DNA from: an uncultured Gammaproteobacteria bacterium
Lineage (GTDB): Bacteria > Patescibacteriota > Microgenomatia > Levybacterales > GWA1-39-11
Reading direction: 5' to 3'
Length of the DNA: 64,000 nt
Assembly: GCA_964627245.1 (NCBI GenBank)
Contig: CAZVGS010000001.1
Span: 89,256-153,255 of the forward strand
The translations under genes and the position numbers were made by a program. The notes beneath the pieces are model-generated. The model ran no database searches. It saw only the letters and a list, made by a program, of their open reading frames with translations, and was not told where the DNA came from. Shown here one piece after another: positions 12,107 through 62,533 of this stretch; the stretch's first letter is position 1, and every line of letters starts with the position of its first letter.

Positions 12107-15100
12107 ATGGAATTAAAATCACTGCTCAGAGACGTTTCACGCCGTTATAACGAATATAACCGTAAACAGAAAAAACCACGCATACAGCCGAGTCTTATTG
12201 AAGATGTCGGGAACCGATTCCGCTCATTCGTAAAAGAACAGTCTCAGGAAGGCCAACCGCTCCACAAAATAACCCGCACCATTCAGGAATTACCGTTAGT
12301 TACACAACGCGAAGTAGATGAGGTCGGGACCCGCTTTCGCTCTTTCGTGGATGAAAGACAAAAAAATGTTGATGATGTGGGTAAACGATTCGGGGAATTC
12401 AAAGTAAAGGCTTCTCAGTTTTCAAAGGATTATGACCCGTTCAACTTTGATGAAAAAGCCCCGATAAATCAGCTTCCCGTTCTCGGCGATATCCGCAGAA
12501 CATTACAGCCGTATACAAATCCTTATAAATTAGGTCCTATGGAACTGATGCGCAGAAATACGGAACTCATGCAAAAAGAGAGTAAAGGAATTGCATTGAC
12601 CGATGAGGAAAAGGAATTTCAGAAGTATTACATGACCGAACAGGCTTCTATGGTTATGCCGATGGGTACGGTCGGTAAAGTGGCAAAACCCGCATTAACC
12701 GCATTGCAGAAAGAAGCCGTAAAGAAATTACCTAAAATACTCTATGAATTTGATGCTAAGACCGCAAACAAGGTAATTGATGAAGCAAAAGGAGCCTCTA
12801 AAGAATGGGTTGATGAATTCAAATCATGGGTAAATACCAGAGCATCCGCACAGCTTCAGGGACTGAATCAGCGGATGAAATTCAAGGATATGGATTCTGA
12901 GGGAATTGCAGGTATTTTTAAGTTCCAGGCAGGAGACAAGACGGGACGGTTTGCCGATGTGAAGAAATTTTTTGATTCCCGCTATTCAGAACTTCAGAAA
13001 GCAGGAGTTGAATTCAGATATAAACAGGAGTATCTACCGCAACTATGGCTTAATTCAAAAGAAGAGGTTGAGGAACGGCTCGGACGAACTCTTACTTCCC
13101 GTCCTTCCTTCTCTCTTCGATCAGTAATTGAGAATTATCAGAAAGGAATAGCTAACGGACTAAAACCGCGCTTTCAGACATTATCGGAACTTATCGGATG
13201 GTATGAGGCAAAAACGGCCAAAGTTATAGCGGATCAGAATTTTTACAACTACATGAAGAAGGCAAAGTATATTCTTCCTGAGGATACGGCTCCTGCATGG
13301 TGGAAAACGATAGATTCCGAGAAGTTTCCGAAGTTCACGGTTAAAGTAGGTTCGGAGGTTAAGAATCTGAACTATAAAGCTGAGGGAAGAATTGCGGATG
13401 CTATTAACAATTATCTTAATGACCCTGAAGGAGCATTACCAGCTTTTGCTGACTTTGCCACGAAGGTTAAGAATCTGGGATTATCGGCAGGCGTACCCCA
13501 TACTTCAATTAACTTTCACGGCTATAACATCTTCGTCCGTTCGGTCCTGGCAAGTAATAACCCCGTATCTTCTATTTTCAGAACAGGCCAATGGATGCTT
13601 AAACCCAAAATTGCGGAACGGTTTGTTATGAATAACCTTGAGGATGCGCAGTATTTTGTTAAAAACGGCATGACCATGAGTACCGAGGATTACGGACTGT
13701 TCGAGGCGGTTGAGAAGGTTAAAAAAAGCGGTGTAATTAATAAGACATTAGATAAATATGAGGAATGGTTCGGGGACCCTCTGTTTAAGAAATCCCTTCC
13801 CGCAATCAAAATTCAGTATACCCGCGCATTGTTTGATGATTTACTCAAAACATTGCCTGAAGAGGAAGCGGTAAAGATAGCCGTAAAAAGCGCAAATGAT
13901 GTATTCGGGGGAATTAATTTGAATGAACTGATGCGCAACAAACAAACACAAAATGTACTCCGTTCCGTTCTGCTCGCGCCAGACTGGGCTGAGTCTACAA
14001 TCAGAATGGGTAAAGGAATTGTTAAAGGAGTTGCCAACCCGTTAAGCCCCGAGTACAAAGCATACCGTACTTTTGCCAAAAACATGGTATTCGGGTATAT
14101 CACGGCCAACGTTGTGAATAAAGCTCTGTCAGGTCACTGGATGTTTGAAAATGAAGGTAACAATAAATTCAATATTGATACCGGTACATATACGGGAGAC
14201 GGTAAGAAACGGTACTTCAGAATCTGGGGTACGGCCGTTGATTTTGCCAGACTTCCTGTTGATATCGTTAACGGTCTCTCAAAAGGCGATCCGTCAGCAT
14301 TTGTCAGAACCTTCACTAACCGCTTATCCATGCCTGTAGGTTCAGCAGGACATTTACTATTCAATAAAGATTATCTCGGACGGCCCGTATACGGAAAAGA
14401 CCAATGGGGAAATGAAATCGACCCTATACAGTCAGCAGGAGGCATAACAAATGAAGTATTACGCGGTGTCGGAACTCCTACTCAGGTAATGGCGGGTATT
14501 GATTTACTTACAGGGCGTTCAAATCCCGAACAGGCTCTTGCTCAGTCACTTGAACTTCCGATGCGATATCAGGGAGGAGCAAGCTCGGACACACAGAAAA
14601 GAAGAAATGCAGCGTTTCAGTCTCTCGGCTTTGAAGGCGAAGCATTAGCCCGCGAAATGGAGAGAACAAAGGGTATGAGATATTCGGGAAGTCAGGGAGA
14701 AGAAAAGTCACTGCTTGACCATATCGGAGAAAAGTTCATGAGCGTATTCGGTAAGAAAGAACCTAACAGACCTCAGCCGAATGACCCGCTTACAAAGGCT
14801 TTTCTTGCGGATATCGAAAAGGATGAGAATGCTACCCGTGTAAGAGAAGTATTCAAATTAGGTTTAAGCAAGGAACAGACAGAACAGTTACTTGAAAAGG
14901 AAGGATTAGGTACGTATGAAGAAGCTGAATTGATAATTATGAAAGCTCTCGGTGTTGAGAACGGAACTCGTGGAAATTACATTCAGGAGATTACAAAGGG
15001 AATGGATGATGAAAGTAAAGAGGCCACTCTTTCCTATCTGGCCGAGAACGAAATTCTGACTACCTCAGTTATATCCCAATGGGTTGATGACGGGGAAATA

Positions 15101-15391
15101 ACAGACGAGGAAGCCGATTATCTGAAGGACCTGATTAAAAAAAGTAAAGGAACGTACAAAGGTCCGAAGGCAAAAGGCGGTAAGAAAGCGGGCGCAAAGA
15201 AAGTAACGGCAGGAAGTATCCCGACAATTAAGATTCCTACTTTTGCGGGCGGTACGGTTAAGAGTGTCAGCAAGGCATATTACAAACCGATACCAAAGAT
15301 TACCTATGAAAGACCTACGCCTACTTCAAAACAAAAAGTATCAGCTCCGAAGCCTGAGACTAATTTTAAATCATACGGAGGGAACAACTAA
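12107..15391 (+). CDS. Large (1094-aa) hypothetical protein of the mobile element, mostly helical with a Lys-rich C-terminus
   Basis: Long uninterrupted ORF. No Walker A motif and no TM segments, so it is neither a terminase nor a classic tape-measure protein. Size and position suggest a virion-associated or DNA-transfer protein. Confidence 0.5.
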   Translation: MELKSLLRDVSRRYNEYNRKQKKPRIQPSLIEDVGNRFRSFVKEQSQEGQPLHKITRTIQELPLVTQREVDEVGTRFRSFVDERQKNVDDVGKRFGEFKVKASQFSKDYDPFNFDEKAPINQLPVLGDIRRTLQPYTNPYKLGPMELMRRNTELMQKESKGIALTDEEKEFQKYYMTEQASMVMPMGTVGKVAKPALTALQKEAVKKLPKILYEFDAKTANKVIDEAKGASKEWVDEFKSWVNTRASAQLQGLNQRMKFKDMDSEGIAGIFKFQAGDKTGRFADVKKFFDSRYSELQKAGVEFRYKQEYLPQLWLNSKEEVEERLGRTLTSRPSFSLRSVIENYQKGIANGLKPRFQTLSELIGWYEAKTAKVIADQNFYNYMKKAKYILPEDTAPAWWKTIDSEKFPKFTVKVGSEVKNLNYKAEGRIADAINNYLNDPEGALPAFADFATKVKNLGLSAGVPHTSINFHGYNIFVRSVLASNNPVSSIFRTGQWMLKPKIAERFVMNNLEDAQYFVKNGMTMSTEDYGLFEAVEKVKKSGVINKTLDKYEEWFGDPLFKKSLPAIKIQYTRALFDDLLKTLPEEEAVKIAVKSANDVFGGINLNELMRNKQTQNVLRSVLLAPDWAESTIRMGKGIVKGVANPLSPEYKAYRTFAKNMVFGYITANVVNKALSGHWMFENEGNNKFNIDTGTYTGDGKKRYFRIWGTAVDFARLPVDIVNGLSKGDPSAFVRTFTNRLSMPVGSAGHLLFNKDYLGRPVYGKDQWGNEIDPIQSAGGITNEVLRGVGTPTQVMAGIDLLTGRSNPEQALAQSLELPMRYQGGASSDTQKRRNAAFQSLGFEGEALAREMERTKGMRYSGSQGEEKSLLDHIGEKFMSVFGKKEPNRPQPNDPLTKAFLADIEKDENATRVREVFKLGLSKEQTEQLLEKEGLGTYEEAELIIMKALGVENGTRGNYIQEITKGMDDESKEATLSYLAENEILTTSVISQWVDDGEITDEEADYLKDLIKKSKGTYKGPKAKGGKKAGAKKVTAGSIPTIKIPTFAGGTVKSVSKAYYKPIPKITYERPTPTSKQKVSAPKPETNFKSYGGNN

Positions 15392-18422: not shown

Positions 18423-18560
18423 ATGACTATTCAGGAAAAAGAACAATTAAAAAATTTACCTCCCTTACCTGAAGAGGTTGAAGCTAAATTGCGTGCATTC
18501 GTTAATCTGATTATCGACCGCGTGCAGGAAGAACAGGCCAAGGGGGTAGTAAAAAAATGA
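18423..18560 (+). CDS. Small ORF (45 aa) translationally coupled to the recombinase; candidate recombination directionality factor (RDF) or accessory protein
   Basis: MTIQEKEQLKNLPPLPEEVEAKLRAFVNLIIDRVQEEQAKGVVKK. Its TGA overlaps the recombinase ATG (ATGA). Preceded by the inverted repeat AACGTGAG-n11-CTCACGTT. Confidence 0.3.
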   Translation: MTIQEKEQLKNLPPLPEEVEAKLRAFVNLIIDRVQEEQAKGVVKK

Positions 18561-20233
18561 AGTATCAGGCAGTTGCTTTACTCCGTGTATCATCGACAAA
18601 ACAGGGCCTTCAGGGCGATTCTCCAGACGACCAAAAAGTTCAGATTATAATCAAGGCTTCCACCTTCAACATCTTACCCGAACAGATTAAATTCTTTAAG
18701 CTCATACAGTCAGCATCGGGCGAAATTCAGCCCGCACAGGACGTTATAGACTTCTGTAAAACAAATCAGGTTGAATACTGCTTTATTAAATCCATTGACC
18801 GATTTACGCGCGGTGGTGCCGATTTTTATCCATATCTTAAGAATCAACTTATAAAAGTAGGTGTTCAGTTAGTAGATGTATTCGGTGTGATCAATCCGAC
18901 AGAAGTGAATACTCTTGAACATCTCGGAATGTCATTCAAGTGGAGCAAATACCACCCTTCCTATACCTCCGAATTACTGGAAGCCGAACGCGCAAAGTCT
19001 GAGGTCCGGGATATTCTTTCCAGACTTATCGGGGCGGAAATCCGTTATATCCGTATGGGTTATTGGGTAGGTCCACCGCCACAGGGATTAGTTACCGATA
19101 AGATAGAGACTGACTTTGACGGAAAAAGAACAATTCTTTCCCCTGACCCGAAGCGAAGCATCTTCTTTAAGCGGATGTTTGAACTTCGCGCTCAGGGTAA
19201 TCTTACCGACCATGAAATAGTTACCGCAATCAATGAAATGGGATATAAATCCCCTGAAAGACGAAGAAGAAAGAGCAAGCACGACCCGACCGTTATCGGA
19301 ATAATCGGTGGTACGCCGTTAACCTGCAAGCAGATGAGAAACTTTATCGAAAACCCCATATACGCGGGAATAATCGTTCACGGATTCTCACAATTCAAGC
19401 CCGTAAAAGCGAAGTTCGAAGGACTTGTGAGTGTTGGTACATGGAACAAGGCCAATAGAGGCAGAGCTACAATCGTAACAGACGGAGATACGATCAGAAT
19501 TCTCAGACAGGAACCTGAATCGTGGCAATTAACCAAGCAGAAGCAGAATCCTGAATTTCCGTACAGGGAGTTCGTATTATGTTCTGAGTGTAAACACCCG
19601 CTGAAAGGTTCATTCTCTACCGGGAAACTCGGCAAAAAGTATCCGGGATATCATTGTTCGCTCAGACATAAGCTTTATAGAATCCCGAGGAAGGACTTTG
19701 ATAAAACCATAGAGAAATTTGTATCAGAGGTAAAGTTCTCCGACCGATTCAAACTATATCTCAAAAAGTACGCGCTTGAGGAAATGGAGAAACGAAGAAT
19801 GCTTGCGGTTGATGATTCGCTGCATTTCCAACAACTCACGGCAAACCTGACGGCCGAGAAAAAACTAATCCTTGAGAAAGTGAAAATCCTCTCAAATCCT
19901 CTCATGCTCAAAGAACTTGAAAAACAGCTTGAAGATGTGGAGGCAAAGCTTATTCAGGCCAAGCAGAAGCGCAATAATAAGGAAGAAGCTGAGGTTCAAA
20001 TTGACACTTTAATTGCACATGCGAATTATTACATGGAACACCTCAAGGAATTACTCTTTTCAGGCACGAATCCGATACGGGACGCGGAGTTTTTCAGCCT
20101 GTTATTTGAAGAATTACCTACCTATAAAGAACTGGAGGATGGAACACCTAAATTAGATTGTCTGTTCAGGCTAAATGAAGCATTCAATACGCCTCAAAGT
20201 GATGTTGTGAGCGGCCAGGGACTCGAACCCTGA
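18557..20233 (+). CDS. Large serine recombinase (integrase)
   Basis: 558 aa. N-terminal resolvase catalytic domain (ALLRVSSTKQGLQGDSPDDQ, with the Ser nucleophile). Recombinase domain, zinc-ribbon (CSECKHPL...YPGYHCSLRH) and C-terminal coiled coil. The last ~26 nt overlap tRNA-Lys. Confidence 0.85.
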   Translation: MKYQAVALLRVSSTKQGLQGDSPDDQKVQIIIKASTFNILPEQIKFFKLIQSASGEIQPAQDVIDFCKTNQVEYCFIKSIDRFTRGGADFYPYLKNQLIKVGVQLVDVFGVINPTEVNTLEHLGMSFKWSKYHPSYTSELLEAERAKSEVRDILSRLIGAEIRYIRMGYWVGPPPQGLVTDKIETDFDGKRTILSPDPKRSIFFKRMFELRAQGNLTDHEIVTAINEMGYKSPERRRRKSKHDPTVIGIIGGTPLTCKQMRNFIENPIYAGIIVHGFSQFKPVKAKFEGLVSVGTWNKANRGRATIVTDGDTIRILRQEPESWQLTKQKQNPEFPYREFVLCSECKHPLKGSFSTGKLGKKYPGYHCSLRHKLYRIPRKDFDKTIEKFVSEVKFSDRFKLYLKKYALEEMEKRRMLAVDDSLHFQQLTANLTAEKKLILEKVKILSNPLMLKELEKQLEDVEAKLIQAKQKRNNKEEAEVQIDTLIAHANYYMEHLKELLFSGTNPIRDAEFFSLLFEELPTYKELEDGTPKLDCLFRLNEAFNTPQSDVVSGQGLEP

Positions 20234-20279
20234 ACCGATTCCTTAAGAGGGAATTGCTCTACCATTGAGCTAGCCGCCC
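20208..20279 (-). tRNA. tRNA-Lys (anticodon CTT)
   Basis: Reverse complement reads GGGCGGCTAGCTCAATGGTAGAGCAATTCCCTCTTAAGGAATCGGTTCAGGGTTCGAGTCCCTGGCCGCTCA. Cloverleaf with acceptor GGGCGGC/GCCGCTC (G2-U71), D-arm GCTC/GAGC, anticodon loop CTCTTAA, T-loop TTCGAGT. CCA not encoded. Confidence 0.8.
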
Positions 20280-50939: not shown

Positions 50940-51671
50940 TTATTTTTTGGAAATATTGAGGACTTTTTTTACAGGTGTTGCTTTTTTTGAAAGTGTTTTT
51001 TTAACAATCTCATTAATTATTATTCCATCTTTAAGCTCAATATTTCTCTGAGCTAATTTAGCGTACTCAGATTCATGAGTAACCATAATAATAGTTTGAC
51101 CCTGCCGATGCAAATCTAAAAAAATATCCAGCACTTTTTCAGAGGATTCGGAATCAAGATTTGCGGTAGGCTCATCGGCAAAAAGAATTTTTGGATTGTG
51201 AACAATTGCCCTTGCAATACTTACGCGTTGTTGCTGCCCGCCGGAAAGTTGGCTTGGAAGATTATCCAACCTATCCTGAAGATCAACCTTCATAAGAGCA
51301 TCTATAGCTTTTTTTTGAGCCACGCTTTCATCTAAACCCTGCATGAGAAGTGGCATCATGACATTTTCTTTGGCAGTAAGCATAGGAAGGATGGCATAGT
51401 CTTGGAAGATATATCCCAAATTTTTTAGCCTAAATGATATTTTTTCCTCACTCGTCAGTTTAGTTGTGTCTATGTCCTCAATAGTAACAGTGCCCTGATT
51501 TGGTGTGTCAAGCAAGCTAAGCTGATATAATAATGTGCTCTTGCCGGACCCTGACATGCCTGTAATTGCTAAGAACTGTCCACCCGGTACACTAAAGCTA
51601 ATTTTTTTTAATGCCGTTAGTGTGTTGTCACCGATTGTAAATATTCTCGTTACGTCTTTTACTGTGATCAT
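50940..51671 (-). CDS. ABC transporter ATP-binding protein (MacB/LolD-type)
   Basis: 243 aa. Walker A GMSGSGKST, signature LSGGQQQRVSIARA, Walker B ILFADEPT. Confidence 0.85.
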   Translation of the reverse strand: MITVKDVTRIFTIGDNTLTALKKISFSVPGGQFLAITGMSGSGKSTLLYQLSLLDTPNQGTVTIEDIDTTKLTSEEKISFRLKNLGYIFQDYAILPMLTAKENVMMPLLMQGLDESVAQKKAIDALMKVDLQDRLDNLPSQLSGGQQQRVSIARAIVHNPKILFADEPTANLDSESSEKVLDIFLDLHRQGQTIIMVTHESEYAKLAQRNIELKDGIIINEIVKKTLSKKATPVKKVLNISKK

Positions 51672-51674
51672 ATA

Positions 51675-52949
51675 TTATCTTCCTAAAATCGCATCTAACG
51701 TATTTTGTTTGGTTACCATTCTTGCCGGAACATACCCCGAGATAAATGCGGTTAGAGTCAGGATAAGGCCTCGCATAACAAGCCCGCTTGTGGTAACTGC
51801 TAACTTCCCTTCCGTTACCGGGAATTTGAGAGGGTGAATATCAAACCAAGGCGCTAAAAACCAGATAATAATAAGACTTGAAAAAATTATTCCAGATAAG
51901 GCATAAAATAGTGACTGCATCACATACGAGACCTCAATTGACCGAGCTGATATCCCAATACCCTTCATGATACCTATATATTTTCTTCTTGTTATGGCAT
52001 TTACAAAAATTACAATAAAAATTGTAATAGCGCCTACAATAAGAGAAATTACACCCACAATATTACCCAGCATTGAAAAAGTCTTTTTCATATCAGATAT
52101 AGCTTTTGGCAATGTTTCTTCTGCGGTTTCGACAATAACGTCGGTGTCATAAGAGAAATTTTTTAGTATATACTCCTTTGCTTCTTCCCTGCTTGAGTCA
52201 GGGTTCAACAATACTGCAATTTCACTAGCATTAAGACTATGATTGTTGATAAGTGGACGCATTGTACTTTCAAGCATGAATGCACGGCCGTCGACCGTGC
52301 TATTTCCTGTATCAACTATTCCCCTCACAAAAACGTCGATATCCTCATTGCCAATAATCAGCTTTAGTCGAGATCCAATGGTTATATCCTTCAACCGTGG
52401 CTCTGTTGAGGAGCCCTGAGAGTATTCTACAAGAAGACTTTTTCCCAGTATAATTCCATCCGTGTCATATTCCTTCAAATATTCGCCTAAAATAATTTCA
52501 GAGGATATTCCCGTAACTGCATCTTCATCTTTCGGATTAATTCCAACTATCGTGCTGTTTACTCTCTGTCCAATATCAATAGCGCGGATTTTTACTTTAT
52601 TTTCATTTTCTAGTATTGCTGGTGTCGTGTATCTGCTTGAAGACGCCTGATAAGAAGGCAGGCTTTTTATCACAGAATTCAACATGCTAGACTGCGATAT
52701 TGAGACGTACTGAGTAGCTGGTTTTATTAAAATGTCTGACGAATAATAAGTCTTAAAAGAATTCATCATACCTTCAGCCAAACCGGTCAAAATTCCACCC
52801 ATCAACACCATATTAAGGAAAGTTAGTGACATTACAAAAATAATAAGAGCAGTTGACCAGGGATTATTACGTTTTAATTCTCGGAAAGCTAAGAATTGAC
52901 CTACAAATATATCTTTCTGAAATTTACTGAAGAGATCTAGTATTTTCAT
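51675..52949 (-). CDS. ABC transporter permease, FtsX/MacB-type
   Basis: 424 aa. N-terminal TM, large periplasmic domain, three C-terminal TM helices (FtsX fold). Confidence 0.7.
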   Translation of the reverse strand: MKILDLFSKFQKDIFVGQFLAFRELKRNNPWSTALIIFVMSLTFLNMVLMGGILTGLAEGMMNSFKTYYSSDILIKPATQYVSISQSSMLNSVIKSLPSYQASSSRYTTPAILENENKVKIRAIDIGQRVNSTIVGINPKDEDAVTGISSEIILGEYLKEYDTDGIILGKSLLVEYSQGSSTEPRLKDITIGSRLKLIIGNEDIDVFVRGIVDTGNSTVDGRAFMLESTMRPLINNHSLNASEIAVLLNPDSSREEAKEYILKNFSYDTDVIVETAEETLPKAISDMKKTFSMLGNIVGVISLIVGAITIFIVIFVNAITRRKYIGIMKGIGISARSIEVSYVMQSLFYALSGIIFSSLIIIWFLAPWFDIHPLKFPVTEGKLAVTTSGLVMRGLILTLTAFISGYVPARMVTKQNTLDAILGR

Positions 52950-53899
52950 GGACTTTTACTATCTGGCCTTGCAAGAACTTCTGTTCCATTATTAAGACCG
53001 GATAGTATTTCGGCTTTTACAAATCCTTTTTCACCAATTTTTACTTCTGTAAGCTGACCGTCTCTGTCTTCAGCTTTTTGTACATATATTTTTCCGTCTC
53101 TATAAATTAAAGCACTCATAGGAACAGTAAGCGTATCTTCTTTGCGGATAAGTTGAATTGTAGCTATTGCAGTCATATTTGGTTTTACACTTGCAGGCAG
53201 GTCGTTAACTTGAATTTTTGATTCAAAAGTCACAACTCCTCCATCGATGGCTCCAGCTGTATCGATAGATTTGACTTTTCCCGACAAAGACAAGTCTTTA
53301 ATCGCATCAAAAGTGATATCCACTTTTTGTCCGGAAGAGATTTTTGGAGCATATATCTCATTGATATAAACAGTTAAATATGGCTCATCTTCCAAAGTAT
53401 CTTCATACGCAATCTTTGCCAGATTTACTTGAGCTTGAGCTGCTGAAATAGCAATGTCTGCCTCCTTGTACTTTGTTTCTGCTGATCGGAAATCTTTTTC
53501 TGCTTCAACAAGGACAGAGTCTATGCTTAATTTTTCGAGGGTTGTATACTCATCCTTAGTAGCCGGATTGGTCGTATTATCATTTTTATAATTCACACTG
53601 TTTTCTGCATCCAAAACTGCCTGTCTTTTCACCCACATCGCAGCATCTGCAGCCTGTTTGTTTTGCTTTGCGGTAGCTAATGAGTTAATTGCGCTTTGAT
53701 ATTCTGCGTATGCTGACGCTTTTTCTGTATCGGTTGCTGTCTTATGAAATGTGCCGCTTACCTGAACAGTTTCAAGAAAGGTTTCTTTTTGTACCGTATG
53801 CAACAGACGGGTATCAGGCTTTTGCAATACCAGAAATTTAAATCCGATGGCAGATATTACTATAAAAGCGACGACAAAATAAATTTTACGTAGTTTCAT
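52946..53899 (-). CDS. Periplasmic adaptor / membrane-fusion protein (HlyD/MacA-like)
   Basis: 317 aa. N-terminal anchor, coiled-coil region, beta-barrel C-terminus. 4-bp overlap with the permease. Confidence 0.55.
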   Translation of the reverse strand: MKLRKIYFVVAFIVISAIGFKFLVLQKPDTRLLHTVQKETFLETVQVSGTFHKTATDTEKASAYAEYQSAINSLATAKQNKQAADAAMWVKRQAVLDAENSVNYKNDNTTNPATKDEYTTLEKLSIDSVLVEAEKDFRSAETKYKEADIAISAAQAQVNLAKIAYEDTLEDEPYLTVYINEIYAPKISSGQKVDITFDAIKDLSLSGKVKSIDTAGAIDGGVVTFESKIQVNDLPASVKPNMTAIATIQLIRKEDTLTVPMSALIYRDGKIYVQKAEDRDGQLTEVKIGEKGFVKAEILSGLNNGTEVLARPDSKSP

Positions 53900-53900
53900 G

Positions 53901-54338
53901 TTATTTAATTTTAGCTTGAGAGTCCAATATGCTGGTAAATATTCTTATCATCTCTTTGATGTCATTTTCAGGAATGGCTTTAAAGACATTAAAATGAGTT
54001 TTTTGTAGTTGATCTTTAAACACTTTTGTCTGTTTTACCCCATCTTGAGTAATAGAAAGACAAATAATTCTGCGGTCGGATGAGCTATTTTCTCTTTTAA
54101 TGAAATTTCCCTCAGCAAGACGATTGGTAAGTTGAGTTGTTGCGGATATTGACATCGATAACTCATCTGCAAGAGACCCGACAGAAGCATTAGGATTCTC
54201 GTAGATGAATGAAAGTGCCTGGGCTTGAAGAAGCGTTACTGCCTTGTCTTCAAAAGAACTTGTTTGCTCGATGAGCTTTCGGACCTTGATTGCTTTGCTA
54301 AAAAATTCAGACAATAATTTTGGGTTAATATTTTTCAT
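53901..54338 (-). CDS. MarR-family transcriptional regulator
   Basis: 145 aa. Winged HTH (LTQAQALSFIYENPNASVGSLADELSMSISATTQLTNRLAEGNFIKRENSSSDRR). Confidence 0.75.
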   Translation of the reverse strand: MKNINPKLLSEFFSKAIKVRKLIEQTSSFEDKAVTLLQAQALSFIYENPNASVGSLADELSMSISATTQLTNRLAEGNFIKRENSSSDRRIICLSITQDGVKQTKVFKDQLQKTHFNVFKAIPENDIKEMIRIFTSILDSQAKIK

Positions 54339-54617
54339 TCTTTTAAGAAGATAGTTTATGACATAAATATTTTATAGTATAAACTATATTCTGTCAAGGA
54401 ACGATTTCATAATACAGATTTTAAATTCAAACCTTTTTACCTAAATACTTATTTGTAAGCAGTGCTTTCGAATATAGAAATTCAGGTATATCCTAAATGT
54501 AATCTTATTGGAGAAAGACTGTCAACCTAAGTAATCAAAAAAAGTTAAGATATTCCGCCAATGTGGTATAATTTGTCCACAAAAATACCAAAGAAGTACT
54601 CAGACCAGTAATATTCT

Positions 54618-55601
54618 ATGGAAAGACACATTAGTGAATTGGACTCTCAATATACTCCCGAAGTTCTAAAAACTGTAAGGCAGGACCCATTTCTTGCGAA
54701 TTTGAAGGAAATTAATGAAATCACTCCTGTTTCAAATGGTGTTTCTCATTACGTATATAAAATTACTACAGACAAAGATAATTTTTTTTTGAAGATACGA
54801 GAGAATCACTTTTCAAGGCTTCCTGAAATTGCAATAAGACCAGAGGACATTAAGAGTGAATATAAAGCACTAACCATTTACGAATCTTTCATGCCAAATA
54901 ATTTCCCCCAAATAGTCTCTTTTAGTGACCAAAAACACTACCTAATAACTACAGACGCAACATTCAATGGTATGTTGTTCCAGGAAACTTTAATAAGTGG
55001 AGACGCTACAGGAGAAATGGTTTATAATCTTGGATCAACATTGAAGGAGATTCATACTTCAACTGCAGCATACACGGATGATATCAGGGAAGAGGGGGAT
55101 AGCACCCATTATGATCTGAAGCTATTGCATAGATTTGAATTCGCTAAAAACGATGGACTCGATGAGGTAGTTGAGAAATTAAAAAAACAAAAAAAACAAT
55201 TAATTTTGGGGGACCCAGCCCCTAAAAACATTGGCATCAATAATAATGGACTACTCTTTATCTTCTTTGATCTCGAAGATGCTCATCAAGGTAATCCCAT
55301 CTTTGACTGTGGCTATTTGCTTGGTCATATATTATTACATAATCTTTTGGATCCAAAAAAAGCGAGCGAATTAGCGGATGACTATACAAGCGGTTATGGA
55401 ATAGAAAAGTTTGATGAAGATATGCTTAAAAAAATTGCATTGGGAATAGTAAGATACCGATTAGGAGGTAAAATTCCATATCCGGCACCAAATATTCCGC
55501 AAGACATGAAAATACCGATAATGAATAGAATCGAAAACATTTTTCAGGTAAATCTCAAAACTTCAGATTGGACTACAATATTTACTTATTTGAAAGCGTG
55601 A
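54618..55601 (+). CDS. Protein-kinase-like fold phosphotransferase (APH/CotS/choline-kinase family)
   Basis: 327 aa. LILGDPAPKNIGI ... IFFDLEDAH (catalytic-loop D...N and DxE metal loop). Distantly similar to the 33418..34392 gene. Confidence 0.5.
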   Translation: MERHISELDSQYTPEVLKTVRQDPFLANLKEINEITPVSNGVSHYVYKITTDKDNFFLKIRENHFSRLPEIAIRPEDIKSEYKALTIYESFMPNNFPQIVSFSDQKHYLITTDATFNGMLFQETLISGDATGEMVYNLGSTLKEIHTSTAAYTDDIREEGDSTHYDLKLLHRFEFAKNDGLDEVVEKLKKQKKQLILGDPAPKNIGINNNGLLFIFFDLEDAHQGNPIFDCGYLLGHILLHNLLDPKKASELADDYTSGYGIEKFDEDMLKKIALGIVRYRLGGKIPYPAPNIPQDMKIPIMNRIENIFQVNLKTSDWTTIFTYLKA

Positions 55602-55615
55602 AAAAATTAAATTTA

Positions 55616-57040
55616 ATGCTTATTGGCGTGGGTCCGCATGCAAAGCGGATTTATTATCCAATTTGCAAACAGGAAAAGTCTTTAGGCGTTAAAATTGTAT
55701 GTGGGGTTGATTTAATAGAAAAAAGGAACGACATTGAGGAATACTTTGAAAAATATCAAGATAGAATGCCCATGCATTATGTGGCTAAGAATGCATATTC
55801 TAAAAAACTAACAAAACAAACAGCAGCAGCACTTAACAAGCTTGTACGAAAATATCAAGTCGATGGAGTAATCATTTCAACTGATCCTTTAGCTCACCTT
55901 CGCTATGGCTTGTGGGCCATTAGCCAAAATCTTCACGTATTGATGGATAAACCTATCTCTGCAGTCCCAGGATCATCAGTAAATGAGACAGCAGCAAGTG
56001 AAATTCTTTCTGATTTTTATTTACTGAAGAAAGCTCATATCAAAACAGGTAAAGATGCAATATTTAGTATCATGGCTCAAAGGCGGTTTCATCAAACATA
56101 TATAAAAGTACGCAAAATGGTAGAGGAAATTTTCAAAAAAACTAATTGTCCTATTACTTCTATTCAAACCGCTCACTCTGACGGTCAATGGAGACTTCCA
56201 TCGGAAATAATTGATATGGATTATCATTCTTTTGATCAGGGCTTAGGCAAGATTTCTCATTCTGGGTATCACTTCCTAGATATGATTTGCTGGCTTATAA
56301 GCGCTGCTACTACAGAGAAGAAGAAGGTAAATAATGTTGACATTTTTGCGCAAGCAATGCGTCCTACTGATTTTATCTCTCAAATAAATTTTTCTGATTA
56401 CAAAAATTTATTTGCAGATTTTTCCAAAATAAACAAATATTCCGAAAAAGAATTTAGAGAAATAACAAAAAAATACGGAGAAATTGACACATTTATCAAT
56501 TTCGCTTTCAAACATAATTCTGATGTAATTACTTTGAGTAGCTCAAATTTAATGCATAATGGTTTCTCTCAGCGAGGTTGGCTATTACCTAAGAAAGATT
56601 TGTACAAGGGAAATGGAAGAGTGAGACAGGAAGCAATGTTCATCGAACAAGGCCCCTTTCAGTCTATTTCGCTCGTCTCTTATCAGTCAAATGAAATAAA
56701 TAAAAATTCTAATAAAAAAGTTTATGATATAGGCGGTGAGTACCACTTGGACGTACATGTTTTTAGAAATAACAATTATAATCCAGAGTGGAAAGACTAT
56801 GAAAAGTTCTCGGTTGAGGATTTATCAGAAAATAGACTAAGAGGTTATTCTAGGGGTCATCAAGAAGATGCACGAAGAAACTCGATTATTGAATTTATAG
56901 AATGCGCGAAAGGTAATCACATAAAACAAAAATCTAGTCTGCTATCTCATGAATCTACTGTTAAACTTATGAGTGGAACATATCTTTCAATGGCGAAAAA
57001 ATTTAATTCTGAAAATCCTGTTGTAAATATCAGGCTCTAG
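55616..57040 (+). CDS. Rossmann-fold NAD(P)-binding oxidoreductase (Gfo/Idh/MocA-like N-terminus) with a long C-terminal domain
   Basis: MLIGVGPHAKRIYYPI (GxGxxA), then a beta-strand with acidic DLIEKR. About 475 aa from the internal Met. Confidence 0.45.
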   Translation: MLIGVGPHAKRIYYPICKQEKSLGVKIVCGVDLIEKRNDIEEYFEKYQDRMPMHYVAKNAYSKKLTKQTAAALNKLVRKYQVDGVIISTDPLAHLRYGLWAISQNLHVLMDKPISAVPGSSVNETAASEILSDFYLLKKAHIKTGKDAIFSIMAQRRFHQTYIKVRKMVEEIFKKTNCPITSIQTAHSDGQWRLPSEIIDMDYHSFDQGLGKISHSGYHFLDMICWLISAATTEKKKVNNVDIFAQAMRPTDFISQINFSDYKNLFADFSKINKYSEKEFREITKKYGEIDTFINFAFKHNSDVITLSSSNLMHNGFSQRGWLLPKKDLYKGNGRVRQEAMFIEQGPFQSISLVSYQSNEINKNSNKKVYDIGGEYHLDVHVFRNNNYNPEWKDYEKFSVEDLSENRLRGYSRGHQEDARRNSIIEFIECAKGNHIKQKSSLLSHESTVKLMSGTYLSMAKKFNSENPVVNIRL

Positions 57041-57043
57041 TCC

Positions 57044-57739
57044 ATGAGATTTCAAATACTAGGAAGGAATACTATTGAGAAGGCTTCAGGTCTCGTTGTG
57101 GTAATAGACGTCCTCAGAGCGTTTACAACAGCATGCTACATATTTTCAAAAGGAGCAAAAGAAATCGTGCTTGCATCAACTCCCGAGGAGGGACTTCTTT
57201 TGAAAAAGCAGTATCCTAAATATCTTTTAGTAGGTGAGCGTAAGGGGCTAAAACTCACAGGATATGATTATGGAAACTCTCCATTTGAAATAAAACAAGC
57301 CAGTCTTTTAGATAAGACTGTCGTGATGACAACTTCCCTGGGGACCTCAACTCTTCTTGATTTGTACACATTATCAAAAGGCAAAGAATTTATTACTGGA
57401 AGTTTTGTTAATGCATCGGCCATTATTAACTACATAAAAAAAAGCAAATATGAAATAGTGAGCCTTATATGCACAGACGACTCCTTCAATGATAACGAGG
57501 ATTACATGTGTGCAAAATATATAGTAAGCAACTTTATAGGAAAATCTCTTGACTTTCAAAAAATAAAGGAAGATTTGACCAAACATCCAATATCTGAAGG
57601 GTTTCTTAAAAAACCTTTAACTAAATACGCACCAGATGATTTCAATCTGTGTTTGCAAGTGAATAAATTTAGGTTTATTATAATGTCAAATAGATCAGCT
57701 GAGAGAATACTTTTGAAGCCTATAAATTATGAGCGCTGA
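57044..57739 (+). CDS. 2-phosphosulfolactate phosphatase family (ComB-like)
   Basis: 231 aa. VVIDVLRAFTTA ... GERKG ... DYGNSPFE blocks typical of the ComB family (PF04029). Confidence 0.6.
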   Translation: MRFQILGRNTIEKASGLVVVIDVLRAFTTACYIFSKGAKEIVLASTPEEGLLLKKQYPKYLLVGERKGLKLTGYDYGNSPFEIKQASLLDKTVVMTTSLGTSTLLDLYTLSKGKEFITGSFVNASAIINYIKKSKYEIVSLICTDDSFNDNEDYMCAKYIVSNFIGKSLDFQKIKEDLTKHPISEGFLKKPLTKYAPDDFNLCLQVNKFRFIIMSNRSAERILLKPINYER

Positions 57740-59201
57740 AAGAAGTCAAGGTGCACCCAATAGATTTACGCTCCGAAAAGAATACTTTGGCGGTCTGGTC
57801 CTTGATTCCCATTCACCCAAGAATGAATTTATCCAGCCAGATGAATATGAGTTTTTAAGCGAATTAAAAGAAACAGAAGCGGCTATATATGATCAAGTCG
57901 CCCAAAATAATCCCAATTTAGCCCAAAGAGTTGATGCTTTTGCCCAGACTGGATTTGTGGAAAAAGGTCCTAATGGTGAAATTCTTTTGACAAACATCAG
58001 ACTTGTGGATCCTCCTCAAACAATCCGCGAAGGCGTTCTTACCGCTCCCATACGTGTATACGATATGTATACCAGAAAATGCAATCTCACCTGCGAACAT
58101 TGCTACGCTGCAAGCAATCCATTTATTAAAGAGGATAGACGCACCTTAGATCAGACAGCAGATATCATGAGGAAGTTTTATGATGCCGGAGCTATAGAAT
58201 GGCGCTTCACGGGTGGGGAACCCACAGTTTACCCTGACTTATTTGACGCTATTGATGTTGCGCAAGGATTAGGTATGAATGTTAGCCTGAATTCAAATGG
58301 ATGGTGGAGCGAAAATACTGCAAAAAAAGTACTTAGTGCTGGAATATCAGAAATGGTAATTAGCATTGAAGGTGAACCAGGAACAAATGACTTAAGAAGA
58401 AAGGTGGGTTCTTATGATCATGTAGTCGACACTCTCGATAAAGTGGCGCATCACAATAAATTATATCCGGATAAATATATGAATGTAATTATAAATACCG
58501 CGGTAGGCAGGGATAATATAAATGACGTAGAATTTGTGGTAAGACTGGCTGCAAAATATGGACACGATATGAACTTTCTTCCATTAAAACCCAGCGGAAG
58601 AGCAAGACATGGACTGCAAACCACGATGCTAAGCCCAAGGGAATGGATGGAATTTTCAAGAAAAGTAAACGAACTTAGATCGGATCCCGAAATAAAAGAT
58701 TCAGGAATTAAACTCAGTCATAAATATAAAGATCTGTTCTGCCCTACTGCTCCTGATCAATCCAATAAACCTTATCCCTTTAACTATGCTGAGTGTGGAG
58801 CAACAACCACAGCTATAAGCATGTTTCCAGATGGAAGGGTTTTCGCATGCCCCTTCGTAATAGAATTTGATGTTAATAATAAATTCGTTGGCCCCAATAT
58901 GATTACGTCATCAGTGGAAGACGCATGGAACGACTTACATATTGACACATTCAGAACTGCCGAGAAAACGCAAGGCTGCTCTAATTGCGGACATCTATCA
59001 AAAGGGTGCAGGGGTGCATGCAAGGCAACAGTTCTTGGGTATGGAGGAGAAATATCGGACGGTAAATTAAAAGGAGAAGATCCGTATTGCTATGCAAATC
59101 TCATGAACGAGAATGGCAAAAACATAGTAATTCCTGAAGACAAAAAGCAAGGACGCCAAATGCTCCCACTTATTGCAATAGATGATATCCCCACACTATA
59201 A
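57729..59201 (+). CDS. Radical SAM enzyme with a C-terminal SPASM domain and a ~110-aa N-terminal extension
   Basis: 490 aa. CNLTCEHCY (CxxxCxxC) at about residue 119, a GGEP motif, and SPASM cysteines C...GRVFAC...CSNCGHLSKGCRGAC. 11-nt overlap with the ComB-like gene. Confidence 0.8.
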   Translation: MSAERSQGAPNRFTLRKEYFGGLVLDSHSPKNEFIQPDEYEFLSELKETEAAIYDQVAQNNPNLAQRVDAFAQTGFVEKGPNGEILLTNIRLVDPPQTIREGVLTAPIRVYDMYTRKCNLTCEHCYAASNPFIKEDRRTLDQTADIMRKFYDAGAIEWRFTGGEPTVYPDLFDAIDVAQGLGMNVSLNSNGWWSENTAKKVLSAGISEMVISIEGEPGTNDLRRKVGSYDHVVDTLDKVAHHNKLYPDKYMNVIINTAVGRDNINDVEFVVRLAAKYGHDMNFLPLKPSGRARHGLQTTMLSPREWMEFSRKVNELRSDPEIKDSGIKLSHKYKDLFCPTAPDQSNKPYPFNYAECGATTTAISMFPDGRVFACPFVIEFDVNNKFVGPNMITSSVEDAWNDLHIDTFRTAEKTQGCSNCGHLSKGCRGACKATVLGYGGEISDGKLKGEDPYCYANLMNENGKNIVIPEDKKQGRQMLPLIAIDDIPTL

Positions 59202-59617
59202 GTTCTATTAAAAATCTTGATACTTTCAGATTTTATATTTGGATTAATCCAGACAATTCCGCATAATAACTTCAATCTCGTAGAATAACTAGGTTAATAA
59301 CCTTGAATAGTCACCCATTCAACATGTTAATCAAATTAATATTATATGAAAAACTGATTGGGAACGAGAAAATATACTAAAATTAGGCTATCTAAGGTCA
59401 ATTACTTAAATTTTGTTATTAAATCCTGATTTGTTTGAGGCATTAATTTAGTTGGTCGCATAACTGTTGTGAGCTACCCGACCCTATTTTCGAACGGATT
59501 GTTTCTCACGCTTTAAAGGTTTGGGAAGTGTACCAGCAGCTTCTCTAGCTAGGAAATCATCAGCTAGTAATTCTGCAAGCTCATCTAATATTTCATCTTC
59601 AGTTTTCTTTTTCTTAA

Positions 59618-60103
59618 CTACCTGACGGGACATAATATAAAAGCATGATGATGAACAATAGTATTTTTATATTCTATTGATTCAAGAGAGGTAGTAACAC
59701 TTGTTTCAGGGTAACTACCGGTTAGTTTATATCTGTATTGCCAATCTCCCTCAGGTTCAGGTTCACAATCTTCCATTAATCTAGTCTTCTCTCCAAGTTC
59801 TAATATCATATGTTTTAAATATGAGCCCACTTCTTTATCAGATATACCTAATGACGATAAAACTTCATCATTTGGTGTTCCGCCAGCATACAAACGAGTA
59901 AAGGTTTCATCTCCTACACGGACCAGTTCCTGTCCCCCACCAGAGCTACTAGCAAACCACTCGTCATGATAAGTTGCACCCTCTGGAAGCTCAACATGAC
60001 TCACATTACCAGAAAAATCTCCACGATTTATACTTTCAGGTTTGCCTCCAGCATACCCAGCGTTTAGACCGTTTGTTAAAGCTGATTTAAATTCCTGTTT
60101 CAC
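59618..60103 (-). pseudogene. Hypothetical gene apparently split by a -1 frameshift (161-aa ORF plus a 49-aa ORF at 59484..59633)
   Basis: The two ORFs overlap out of frame at 59618-59633. The downstream piece (MSRQVVKKKKTEDEILDELAELLADDFLAREAAGTLPKPLKREKQSVRK) has clear coding character. Confidence 0.35.
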
Positions 60104-61128: not shown

Positions 61129-61143
61129 ACGATTGCAACAAAA

Positions 61144-61217
61144 GGCCCCATCGTCTAGTGGCCTAGGACGTCGGGCTTTCATCCCGAAAATCGCGGGTTC
61201 GACTCCCGCTGGGGTCA
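61144..61217 (+). tRNA. tRNA-Glu (anticodon TTC)
   Basis: GGCCCCATCGTCTAGTGGCCTAGGACGTCGGGCTTTCATCCCGAAAATCGCGGGTTCGACTCCCGCTGGGGTCA. Anticodon loop CTTTCAT. The ORF-track ORF that starts at 61133 reads through it. Confidence 0.8.
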
Positions 61218-61258
61218 CAATTAACTTGCTCACTTTGGTTGAGATTTATTTTGTCATT

Positions 61259-62533
61259 ATGGGTGTAGTACTTATTTTAGGAACTCAGTGGGGAGATGAG
61301 GGAAAGGGAAAAGTTATCGATGCGCTGAGCAAAAACTCGGAATTCGTTGTCCGCTTCCAGGGCGGTAACAACGCAGGACATACGGTCATAAATCCTCTTG
61401 GAGAATTCAAACTTCACCTAATTCCTGCTGGTGTATTTGAAAAAAAATCAAAAGTAGCAATAGCAAATGGTGTTGTAATTGATCCTGAAGTACTTGTTGA
61501 AGAAATTGAAAGTCTTGAAAAAGCAGGAATTGATCTCAAAAATAGGCTATACATATCTCCAAGATGCCATATTATTTTGCCTTATCATAAGCTTTTGGAA
61601 AAGGTGTATGAGGAGGCAAAAGGAAAAGGCAAAACAGGAACCACGGGGCGTGGAATAGGTCCTGTCTATTCGGATAAAGTCGGCTACAACGGCATCAGAC
61701 TTTATGACTTAATGGATCCTAAAAAATTTAAGAACAAGCTTGAAATTCAGCTTGGGTTAAAAAATGCAATTCTTAAATCATACGGAATAAAACCTTTGTC
61801 ATTTAGCACCATAGAAAAAACAATGAAACCTATACGAAAAAAGTTGCTGCCGTATATTAATGAACCCTTTCCCTTCATCCAAGAAGCATTAAAGAAAAAT
61901 AAAAAAATTATGATCGAGGGCGCGCAAGCTGTTTTTCTTGACAACGACTGGGGAACCTACCCATTCGTGACTGCTTCAACCATCGTTTCTGGCGGCATAA
62001 CGGGAGGTGCGGGAATTGCACCTAAATACCTGAAAGAAATTATTGGAGTAATCAAAGCATATACCACAAGAGTTGGTGAAGGACCTTTTCCGACTGAATT
62101 TGATGCTAGCGAAAGTGAGCATATCAGAAACCTTGGCCTGGAATTTGGAGCAACGACAGGAAGGGCAAGAAGGTGCGGATGGCTTGATTTGGAGATGGTA
62201 AGATTTGCAGTCGAGTTGAATGGAATTACTGACCTTGCACTAACCAAAATTGATGTCCTAGATACATACAAAGAAATAAAGCTCTGCACCGGCTACAAAT
62301 TGGAAGGCAAAATCCTGAGGTATTATGACGGTGATGAAATCTTTCTTGATAACGTAGAACCTGTATACAAGACGATGAAAGGCTGGCAATCAAGCACAAA
62401 AGGCGTAACCTTATTTGATAAGCTTCCTAGAGAAGCAAAAGCTTACATCGCGGAGATTGAAAAGCAGACAGGAGTAAAAGTCGCATACATCTCAACAGGT
62501 CCTTCAAGGGAAGAGATGATAGCAAGAAGCTAG
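61259..62533 (+). CDS. purA: Adenylosuccinate synthetase
   Basis: MGVVLILGTQWGDEGKGKVIDAL P-loop, GGNNAGHT, TTGRGIGP, C-terminal conserved blocks. Start at the Met 61259. Confidence 0.9.
   Translation: MGVVLILGTQWGDEGKGKVIDALSKNSEFVVRFQGGNNAGHTVINPLGEFKLHLIPAGVFEKKSKVAIANGVVIDPEVLVEEIESLEKAGIDLKNRLYISPRCHIILPYHKLLEKVYEEAKGKGKTGTTGRGIGPVYSDKVGYNGIRLYDLMDPKKFKNKLEIQLGLKNAILKSYGIKPLSFSTIEKTMKPIRKKLLPYINEPFPFIQEALKKNKKIMIEGAQAVFLDNDWGTYPFVTASTIVSGGITGGAGIAPKYLKEIIGVIKAYTTRVGEGPFPTEFDASESEHIRNLGLEFGATTGRARRCGWLDLEMVRFAVELNGITDLALTKIDVLDTYKEIKLCTGYKLEGKILRYYDGDEIFLDNVEPVYKTMKGWQSSTKGVTLFDKLPREAKAYIAEIEKQTGVKVAYISTGPSREEMIARS

Follow-up and report, generated by a model that had tools for sequence, protein, structure and literature searches.

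In a 64,000-nucleotide stretch of genomic DNA from an uncultured bacterium (assembly GCA_964627245.1, contig CAZVGS010000001.1, forward-strand positions 89,256 to 153,255; GTDB lineage Patescibacteriota, Levybacterales), hereafter the window, we identify four consecutive genes, A, B, C and D, whose order across distant relatives indicates that they constitute one operon conserved across bacteria of the candidate phyla radiation (CPR). These code respectively for a predicted kinase, a predicted NAD(P) oxidoreductase, a phosphohydrolase and a radical SAM enzyme. Judged by their sequences, each belongs to a known superfamily and none appears to be an orthologue of a characterized enzyme, and their combination appears to be undescribed. 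Our preferred, though still tentative, interpretation is that they form an undescribed pathway that would remodel the ribose moiety of nucleosides, nucleotides or pentose phosphates, for which we infer the substrate class, the order of steps and the product; deoxygenation of the ribose of a nucleoside or nucleotide is plausibly its outcome.

Organization of the operon

A first-pass annotation of this DNA had reported four consecutive plus-strand genes, and the list of open reading frames (ORFs) bears this out, with the four lying head to tail at the coordinates proposed there and Pfam families now assigned to A, C and D. Gene A (54618..55601, +) encodes a 327-aa phosphotransferase of the APH/choline-kinase fold (PF01636); gene B (55598..57040, + after revision of its start) a 480-aa oxidoreductase predicted to adopt the Gfo/Idh/MocA fold; gene C (57044..57739, +) a 231-aa phosphohydrolase of the ComB family, i.e. 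with the 2-phosphosulfolactate-phosphatase fold (PF04029); and gene D (57729..59201, +) a 490-aa radical SAM/SPASM enzyme (Pfam Radical_SAM and SPASM). The start of B had previously been placed at an internal methionine codon at 55616. This choice is displaced by a GTG at 55598, which is better supported than either a TTG at 55568 or the ATG at 55616, because in the two closest homologous loci the start of B overlaps the stop of A as ATGA, corresponding to GTGA (55598-55601) in the window, and the encoded proteins begin MNNLNLM or MKNLNLM, comparable to MKKLNLM in the window. Hence, by comparison with these loci, B most likely runs from 55598 to 57040 (480 aa). With this revision the junctions become -4 nt for A-B, +3 nt for B-C and -11 nt for C-D, which is the pattern of translationally coupled genes; the latter two values had been given correctly before, and the distance from A to the ATG at 55616 is +14 rather than the reported +15.

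Upstream of A, and 45 nt before its start, there is a promoter-like site, TTAAGA-16 nt-TATAAT with a TG extension (TGgTATAAT; 54545..54572, +). It scores 10/12 plus the TG motif and is the sole such plus-strand site in the 279-nt intergenic region, in agreement with the single extended -10 promoter noted in the first-pass annotation; as a consensus match, it is a promoter candidate. The G+C content of the operon region (0.345 over 54001-58000) is below that of the flanking 48-52 kb segment (0.42) and of the first 20 kb of the window, which is compatible with either acquisition from elsewhere or local composition.

Conservation of the gene set

We collected 107 loci by similarity to D or to the window's B, called their ORFs and clustered the products with BLASTP. 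The nearest locus, in the genome of Ca. Levybacteria RIFCSPHIGHO2_02_FULL_40_18 (D 81% identical), displays the order A-B-C-D unchanged, and the same order recurs in many loci at just 35-57% protein identity to the window and with different flanking genes. Since the order persists at this divergence while the flanks change, A-B-C-D can be regarded as a conserved functional unit; the comparison of neighborhoods indicates that its adjacency is far beyond chance and that B is the universal core. The earlier claim of a real, co-oriented and tightly coupled gene set is thereby upheld across distant relatives, and the genes co-occur across divergent loci, the opposite of the scattering that had been named as grounds for abandoning it.

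Dereplication at 90% identity of B left 31 loci with at least 3 kb on each side of B. A, C and D all accompany B in 11 of these, a second APH/fructosamine-kinase-like kinase (cluster c75) together with C and D in two, and D alone in five. A further 11 loci have Tmk-like and/or NUDIX genes without D (nine NUDIX with Tmk-like, one NUDIX with ThyA-like and Tmk-like, and one ThyA-like with Tmk-like). The remaining two comprise one with only a ThyA-like gene and one without any tracked family. There is zero overlap between the D set and the NUDIX/Tmk set. Literature on ribonucleotide reductases (RNRs), CPR/Patescibacteria, radical SAM/SPASM enzymes, NUDIX, MocA and phosphosulfolactate phosphatase yielded no description of A-B-C-D; this and the failure of the proteins to reach any NCBIfam equivalog cut-off agree with the first-pass view that the combination is not a standard pathway. 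Neither B nor D was found in IMG/VR viral contigs. A role in anti-phage defense was rejected, as PADLOC matched D to pVip only through the generic radical SAM core and gave nothing for A, B, C or the RNR-like protein described below.

The oxidoreductase B is the core of a triad with interchangeable partners

The N-terminal region of B matches PF01408 (GFO_IDH_MocA) with a score of 19.4 bits, under the cut-off of 24; many of its close homologues have a precomputed match to this family, and its fused homologues score 30-44 bits. The AlphaFold2 model (pLDDT 88.9, pTM 0.91) shows the complete two-domain Gfo/Idh/MocA fold, namely the Rossmann domain followed by the C-terminal alpha/beta sheet domain. 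Foldseek searches of the PDB with this model recovered more than 50 structures of the family (probability 1.0, E 1e-15 to 1e-11) over ~470-500 aligned columns, the top neighbors being glucuronide 3-dehydrogenase (8tdi), RgNanOx (6z3c), DgpA, GFOR and levoglucosan dehydrogenase (E 1e-15 to 1e-13; 10-13% identity). Sequence-profile searches linked B to solved structures by matches to the Rossmann segment only, and NCBIfam returned a weak IolG match below the cut-off. The identification of B as a Rossmann NAD(P) oxidoreductase is in line with this model; what had been called its long unique C-terminal domain is modeled as the ordinary C-terminal domain of the family with ~100 residues of inserts.

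Homologues of B form 1464 clusters at the 90% identity level; at the 50% level, 398 clusters score E <= 1e-30. An alignment of 33 sequences (47-70% identical to the window protein) contains 79 invariant columns, which include the motifs GxGxxA, MDKP, QRRxH, HSDGQWR, YKGNGRxRxE and SRGHQEDARR and an aspartate ending strand 2. This aspartate would suggest a preference for NAD(H), and the many invariant arginines and histidines might form a site for a phosphorylated ligand. No residue or C-terminus that tells D-containing from D-free loci was found among the B proteins; we accordingly discarded the idea that D modifies B, there being no distinguishing residue and the C-termini being alike between the two kinds of loci.

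Examination of the gene contexts of B revealed a recurrent triad of a kinase, B and a phosphohydrolase, in which both the kinase and the phosphohydrolase have undergone non-homologous replacement several times. The kinase can be the APH-like A, the fructosamine-kinase-like c75 or a Tmk-like protein, and in one lineage (L008/L009) D-B are followed by a UMP kinase, a bona fide one with 297 bits against a cut-off of 244. The phosphohydrolase can belong to the ComB, NUDIX (three groups), HAD, HD (weak matches) or HIT families. We surveyed the best 150 representatives of the B family for proteins longer than the usual ~480 aa and recovered fusions of B to NUDIX (four proteins: P0305, P0336, P0347 and P0379), HAD (two: P0369 and P0379), HD (two: P0255 and P0263) and Tmk-like kinase domains (two: P0327 and P0401). 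Further neighbors of B include genes for a ThyA-like protein, a protein of the cytidine/deoxycytidylate-deaminase family, a phosphoribosyltransferase and a 2H (2'-5' RNA ligase superfamily) phosphoesterase, along with a weak match to nucleoside deoxyribosyltransferases. The neighborhoods in which the triad lies are those of nucleotide, and in particular deoxynucleotide and pyrimidine, genes. Some B/D loci (L008, L012, L040 and L096-L100) are instead flanked by genes for glycosyltransferases, UDP-glucose dehydrogenase, NTP_transferase and methyltransferases. We also observed that in two loci (L015:8731-12539 and L034:10323-14803) C, the 2H phosphoesterase and D occur together with an HAD phosphatase and a second copy of A, with a phosphoribosyltransferase following B in L034; this variant adds more enzymes of phosphate esters and ribose to the contexts.

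An atypical RNR-like neighbor

A gene for a class-II-like RNR is found divergent from A, at a distance of -2 to 93 nt, in 19 loci, which reduce to 15 upon dereplication (with B 49-86% identical mutually); it is also the direct neighbor of B in the rearranged locus L012. The encoded protein is 567-594 aa long (e.g. L034:5427-7148 on the minus strand, L013:1522-3285 and L035:4622-6406) and, with 314 bits, falls short of the 400 required by NrdJ_Z. A conserved active-site asparagine is shared by class I and II RNRs, and canonical class II enzymes possess a reducing pair of cysteines in their C-terminal tail. In 14 of 14 copies of the RNR-like protein the sequence PPC[AS]E takes the place of N320-P-C322-G-E324 of Thermotoga maritima NrdJ, and the copies end ~8 residues past the VYRDGS motif, without the usual C-terminal tail.

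The kinase A and the phosphohydrolase C

Gene A matches PF01636 (APH) with 44.6 bits against a cut-off of 23.2 (E 2e-11). Its family alignment (17 members) retains the lysine of an LKIR motif, the catalytic-loop aspartate and asparagine in D-x-x-P-K-N and the metal-binding aspartate in F-F-D-x-E, placing it in the APH/choline-kinase-like superfamily. With these residues in place, A should be an active small-molecule or hydroxyl kinase. A sequence search of the PDB with A gave no match. Its homologues are confined to 13 clusters at E <= 1e-3 in a word-indexed protein search and invariably adjoin B.

The assignment of C to the 2-phosphosulfolactate-phosphatase family in the first-pass annotation is confirmed by its match to PF04029 (2-ph_phosp, the ComB family; 146.7 bits against a cut-off of 26.4, E 8e-43). 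Relatives of known structure in the PDB include 2yyv and 1vr0 (at 1e-19), and the family motifs DVLRAF, GE..G, NSP, T.S.GT and TD..NED are kept in 21 homologues. Nevertheless, C misses all the ComB equivalog cut-offs in NCBIfam (best 115.3 against 235 bits; TIGR00298 76.6 against 175), and ComA- or ComC-like neighbors were found in none of the collected loci; on both counts, we rejected the possibility of C being an orthologue of characterized ComB. That C is a disguised precursor or scaffold was likewise rejected, as the 21 homologues keep every enzyme motif and have no conserved tail.

The radical SAM/SPASM enzyme D

Consistent with its first-pass description as a SPASM-domain radical SAM enzyme, D matches the Pfam Radical_SAM (1e-16) and SPASM (2e-5) models above their cut-offs. 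Its ~107 homologues (39-81% identity) are mostly from Patescibacteria, with some from Omnitrophota. An alignment of 26 sequences has invariant C118, C122 and C125 in the [4Fe-4S]-binding CX3CX2C motif of the radical SAM domain (CNLTCEHC, residues 118-125; 58080..58103, +). The SPASM domain (residues 356-454; 58794..59090, +) has seven invariant cysteines (C356, C374, C417, C420, C427, C431 and C454), which would suffice for two auxiliary Fe-S clusters. N-terminal to these, residues 13-93 (57765..58007, +) are predicted to form a domain resembling PqqD and the recognition element (RRE) of enzymes that mature peptides made by the ribosome and modified after translation (RiPPs), with three beta strands, three helices and further strands. 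In the AlphaFold2 model (pLDDT 83.9) this region reaches pLDDT 87-96, with the beta3-alpha3 topology at residues 13-74; on the predicted topology it qualifies as an RRE, and peptide binding by it is putative. Its motif R-x-E-Y-F-G-G...D (R16, E18, Y19, F20, G21, G22 and D26) is invariant.

Foldseek searches with D recovered SuiB, SkfB, CteB and PqqE as the best matches, ahead of BlsE, the anaerobic sulfatase-maturating enzymes (anSMEs), viperin, MoaA and DesII; the RRE-bearing maturases SuiB and CteB can be aligned to D from end to end. In NCBIfam, D scores best with MftC (TIGR03962; 100.5 bits against a cut-off of 265), and a hidden Markov model of MftB weakly matched the N-terminal domain in 3 of 4 tested proteins (E 0.02-0.08). 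We nonetheless rejected D as a true MftC in light of that score, the weak match of the fused MftB-like domain and the want of a conserved small ORF in the search described below. Its identification as an anSME with a cognate sulfatase, which had been named as a possible refutation of the biosynthetic reading, did not materialize either: anSMEcpe comes only 12th among the structural matches (E 1e-11), after the RiPP maturases, the 25 best of 61 NCBIfam matches include no anSME model, and no sulfatase was found in the neighborhood in the window. Similarly, the BtrN-type radical dehydrogenation suggested earlier loses its footing, since D has the full seven-cysteine SPASM domain, rather than a twitch domain, along with the RRE-like domain, and the 50 top structural matches do not include BtrN. 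The collected loci showed neither aminotransferase nor cyclitol synthase genes as neighbors.

A precursor peptide was sought by clustering with BLASTP the ORFs of 15-90 aa that lie up to 700 nt from the cluster in every D locus, and by listing ORFs of at least 12 aa downstream of D and examining the small ORFs of the window. This search, which has little power to detect precursors that are very short, divergent or encoded far away, uncovered no conserved family in the flanks or gaps of at least 30 loci. Apparent families of small ORFs were off-frame artefacts inside the RNR gene or came from near-identical loci, and the intergenic gaps in many loci are too short for a precursor gene. The window's own small ORFs and the two genes downstream of D (49 and 161 aa) are not conserved at other loci. 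Moreover, because the RxEYFGG..D motif of the RRE-like hairpin is invariant across phyla, the domain may recognize a ligand that is itself conserved, for example a small molecule or partner protein, and not a rapidly evolving leader peptide.

Two variations on D in other genomes were also encountered. At L018:155-2904 the homologue of D is split in two by an insertion of ~1.36 kb carrying a 400-aa ORF, which may be a transposase as judged by eye from its N-terminal sequence. Distant paralogues of D (38-42% identity) from Berkelbacteria, Bathyarchaeota and another metagenome-assembled genome occur in clusters (L022:7703-14263, L023:9989-15025 and L024:7673-14378) with apparently four radical SAM genes, i.e. 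two D-like genes and those for proteins of ~430 aa and ~330 aa; inspected by eye, the former resembles a B12-binding radical SAM enzyme and the latter a further radical SAM protein. These clusters also code for a DUF4922-like protein, have no B, and look like a different, natural-product-like system.

A possible pathway and its alternatives

In the pathway that we tentatively favor, A would phosphorylate a hydroxyl on the ribose of a nucleoside or nucleotide, or of a pentose phosphate, and C would remove that phosphate, either by hydrolysis or by an elimination leaving a keto-deoxy sugar. B would carry out the adjacent keto/alcohol redox step at C3' (or C2'), and D would contribute radical chemistry to this scaffold, the simplest case being dehydration of a diol, which would likewise supply B with a keto-deoxy intermediate. 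Overall, a deoxygenated or epimerized nucleoside or nucleotide would result; the same enzymes could just as simply bring about an epimerization through phosphorylation and dephosphorylation. We propose this course because B occurs with a kinase and a phosphohydrolase, with D alone or with all of these, thereby matching both of the deoxygenation logics described below for known systems. Of the two readings offered in the first-pass annotation, modification of a phospho-sugar or cyclitol fares better, in that its logic of kinase, dehydrogenase, phosphatase and radical enzyme is retained, but the context is that of nucleosides, nucleotides or pentose phosphates and not of cyclitols.

Several points tell against this proposal. 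None of the four proteins reaches an equivalog cut-off in NCBIfam, and the substrate is deduced from context. Genes of the RNR, NUDIX, Tmk-like, HIT and ThyA-like types are absent from the window itself, and the argument for a nucleotide therefore rests on other genomes, where the partner proportions are biased because the loci were retrieved via D or the window's B. The fusion proteins are metagenome gene calls and could include run-through errors, and the contexts with glycosyltransferases, UDP-glucose dehydrogenase and NTP-transferase are compatible with a role in envelope sugars. The modeled architecture of D, with its RRE-like domain and best matches to SuiB, SkfB and CteB, would fit a peptide better than a nucleotide. 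The choice between hydrolysis and elimination by C and the direction of the reaction of B are guesses.

The architecture of D is what recommends a second, rather unlikely, explanation, the maturation of a RiPP or peptide-derived cofactor, wherein D would bind a ribosomal peptide via its RRE-like domain and cross-link or decarboxylate it; A, B and C would then tailor it, for instance by Ser/Thr phosphorylation, elimination and reduction, or else the product would serve as a redox mediator for B acting as a nicotinoprotein. Such a role accords with the RRE topology modeled at high confidence, the full-length structural matches led by SuiB, SkfB, CteB and PqqE, the two-cluster SPASM domain, MftC as the best NCBIfam match together with the weak MftB matches at the N-terminus, and the ABC exporter adjoining the operon in the window. 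The case comes down to the domain architecture of D. Against it, D scores 100 bits with MftC, whose cut-off is 265, the exporter is not retained elsewhere, and no conserved small ORF was found within or next to the cluster in a comparison of more than 25 divergent loci, where gaps are often too short for one. The RiPP reading in the first-pass annotation has thus gained an RRE-like domain and failed to gain a precursor gene in its flanks. Furthermore, invariance of RxEYFGG..D across phyla is unusual for domains co-evolving with variable leaders, C has all the enzyme motifs and no tail resembling a core peptide, and B is far commoner without D, in the company of NUDIX and Tmk-like partners, and shows no D-specific residues. 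Modification of an envelope or storage sugar, which corresponds to the phospho-sugar or cyclitol reading of the first-pass annotation and to which we also assign a low probability, would give B the role of a 3-dehydrogenase, or a ketoreductase, that acts on a hexose phosphate, an NDP-sugar or a cyclitol (cf. NtdC/NtdB of kanosamine synthesis and the UDP-sugar 3-dehydrogenases), with A and C setting the phosphorylation state and D acting in the manner of BtrN or DesII. NtdC is a Gfo/Idh/MocA glucose-6-phosphate 3-dehydrogenase that works with an HAD phosphatase, and in keeping with such a role the structural neighbors of B are sugar and inositol dehydrogenases, its weak NCBIfam match is IolG, DesII and BlsE are among the lower structural or sequence matches of D, and glycosyltransferase, UDP-glucose dehydrogenase, NTP_transferase and methyltransferase genes flank the loci listed above. 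However, these neighborhoods occur in just a few of the sampled loci, whereas the recurrent partners and fusions are of the nucleotide type (NUDIX, Tmk-like, HD, RNR-like, UMP kinase, ThyA-like, deaminase-family and phosphoribosyltransferase); no aminotransferase, sugar isomerase or inositol-phosphate synthase recurs in the collected loci, and D combines RRE-like and full SPASM domains instead of a BtrN-type twitch domain, with BtrN absent from its top matches.

The possibility that four unrelated housekeeping genes without a common function happen to be adjacent in a compact genome we consider very unlikely. CPR genomes are indeed gene-dense with frequent overlaps, and the aminoacyl-tRNA synthetase genes next to B-D look like inherited synteny; yet the gene order survives at 35-57% protein identity amid changing flanks, the partner classes fused to B are those that also neighbor it, and the start and stop codons overlap at the A/B and C/D junctions. 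Within the framework of ribose remodeling, a more specific and distinctly improbable version would have the B family act as the NAD(P)H-dependent 3'-ketoreductase of a two-step route from ribonucleotides to 2'-deoxyribonucleotides in CPR bacteria and DPANN archaea, by a mechanism other than that of canonical RNRs. Its 3'-keto-2'-deoxy intermediate would arise from phosphorylation followed by elimination of phosphate (by A and C here, and by the Tmk-like kinase with NUDIX, HD or HAD proteins elsewhere), from radical dehydration by D, or from radical dehydration by the adjacent atypical class-II-like RNR.

Other features of the window

Divergent from A-B-C-D lies an operon coding for a MarR regulator, HlyD, FtsX and an ABC ATPase (50940-54338), of which the MarR gene is the first (53901..54338, -; Pfam). 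Its promoter, TTGACA-17-TAAAAT, is at 54397-54369 (-), and the -10 and -35 elements are overlapped by a 22-nt inverted repeat at 54346-54392 (82% complementary, with a 3-nt spacer), which from its position is likely to be an autoregulatory MarR operator. The divergent arrangement is as the first-pass annotation had it, though the link to A-B-C-D is not conserved: the MarR and exporter genes were absent beside A-B-C-D at homologous loci. MarR was rejected as the regulator of A-B-C-D, given this lack of conservation and the overlap of the palindrome with MarR's own promoter, ~170 nt away. The MarR-exporter genes are probably a separate unit; it is possible that the exporter exports the A-B-C-D product here, a notion without comparative support.

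On the other side, two overlapping genes are convergent to D (59484-60103, -), coding for proteins of 161 aa and 49 aa (Lys/Glu-rich) with no match in Pfam, NCBIfam or PADLOC. The rest of the window has ordinary chromosomal genes, including UvrA, UvrB, RuvB-, GreA- and PurA-like ORFs and tRNAs. In the region 61133-61260, the listed PurA ORF (starting at TTG 61133) begins inside a tRNA-Glu gene (61144-61218), and the start of adenylosuccinate synthetase is probably an internal methionine giving MGVVLILGTQWGDEGKGK. Within 18557-20279, a 558-aa serine recombinase ORF ends in or abuts a tRNA-Lys(ctt) gene (20207-20279); near 20 kb the G+C content falls from 0.41-0.43 to 0.34-0.37 and the skews change sign, and upstream of the recombinase is a 1094-aa ORF (12107-15391) with no Pfam match. 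There may be an integrated element at this tRNA-Lys gene.

Implications and comparison with known systems

CPR bacteria and DPANN archaea have tiny genomes, scavenge building blocks and possess many conserved genes of unknown function, of which the B family is one. Gene order and fusions tie it to a kinase and a phosphohydrolase, and its neighborhoods tie it to genes of the RNR-like, thymidylate and pyrimidine kind; a mere "predicted dehydrogenase" thereby becomes the subject of a testable hypothesis on nucleotide sugar chemistry. Were the product a deoxy- or otherwise altered nucleotide, the operon could represent a new route of DNA-precursor supply in organisms that form a large part of microbial diversity, or alternatively a source of chain-terminating nucleoside analogues with relevance to symbiont-host or phage conflict and to biocatalysis. 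An RRE-bearing radical SAM enzyme without a detectable peptide also poses a puzzle for the radical SAM field.

The individual components display both affinities to and departures from better-known enzymes. B shares with the Gfo/Idh/MocA sugar C3 dehydrogenases the modeled two-domain fold over its full length and the GxGxxA and (E/D)KP-type motifs, but it differs in its 10-13% identity, ~100 extra residues of inserts and unique set of invariant arginines and histidines, and profiles recognize it by the Rossmann segment alone. C is comparable to ComB of coenzyme M biosynthesis in belonging to PF04029, in its conserved family motifs and in its solved relatives 2yyv and 1vr0, and departs from it in falling below every ComB cut-off, in having no ComA or ComC nearby and in its nucleotide-related context. 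D, as modeled, recapitulates the combination of an RRE-type domain, a radical SAM core and a two-cluster SPASM domain seen in MftC/MftB, PqqE/PqqD, SuiB and CteB. Unlike in the mycofactocin system, however, there is no MftA-like or other precursor and no MftD, MftE or MftF, it is accompanied by a kinase, a phosphatase and a Gfo/Idh/MocA enzyme, and its MftC score is far under the cut-off.

At the level of the whole system, the closest parallels are with pathways of sugar deoxygenation. In gentamicin biosynthesis, the phosphotransferase GenP is reported to phosphorylate the 3' position, and the 3',4'-dideoxygenation that follows is attributed to GenB3 (PMC7941887). In the C3' deoxygenation of apramycin, the radical SAM enzyme AprD4 dehydrates a sugar 1,2-diol to a ketone, which AprD3 then reduces (PMC5461906). 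By analogy of reaction logic, the pairing of a radical SAM enzyme with a nicotinamide-dependent reductase would be echoed by D and B, which occur as a minimal pair alone in five dereplicated loci; the differences lie in the RRE-like and full SPASM domains of D, and the substrate of A-B-C-D is probably not an aminoglycoside. In the cordycepin system of Cordyceps militaris (Cns1-Cns3), a kinase generates 3'-AMP, the HD phosphohydrolase Cns2 converts it to 2'-keto-3'-deoxyadenosine and the oxidoreductase Cns1 yields 3'-deoxyadenosine (PMC8869658), such that a kinase, a phosphohydrolase and an NAD(P)-type oxidoreductase deoxygenate ribose via a phosphate ester and a keto-deoxy intermediate. The same three classes co-occur and are fused across the B loci amid nucleotide enzymes, B is fused to or adjacent to HD-domain proteins of the superfamily of Cns2, and the cordycepin cluster also has an ABC transporter. 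The likeness is one of enzyme class, as the operon has an APH-fold kinase, a ComB-fold phosphohydrolase, an added radical SAM enzyme and CPR hosts. By these analogies, A-B-C-D would work most like the cordycepin and AprD4/AprD3 systems, while being a member of neither.

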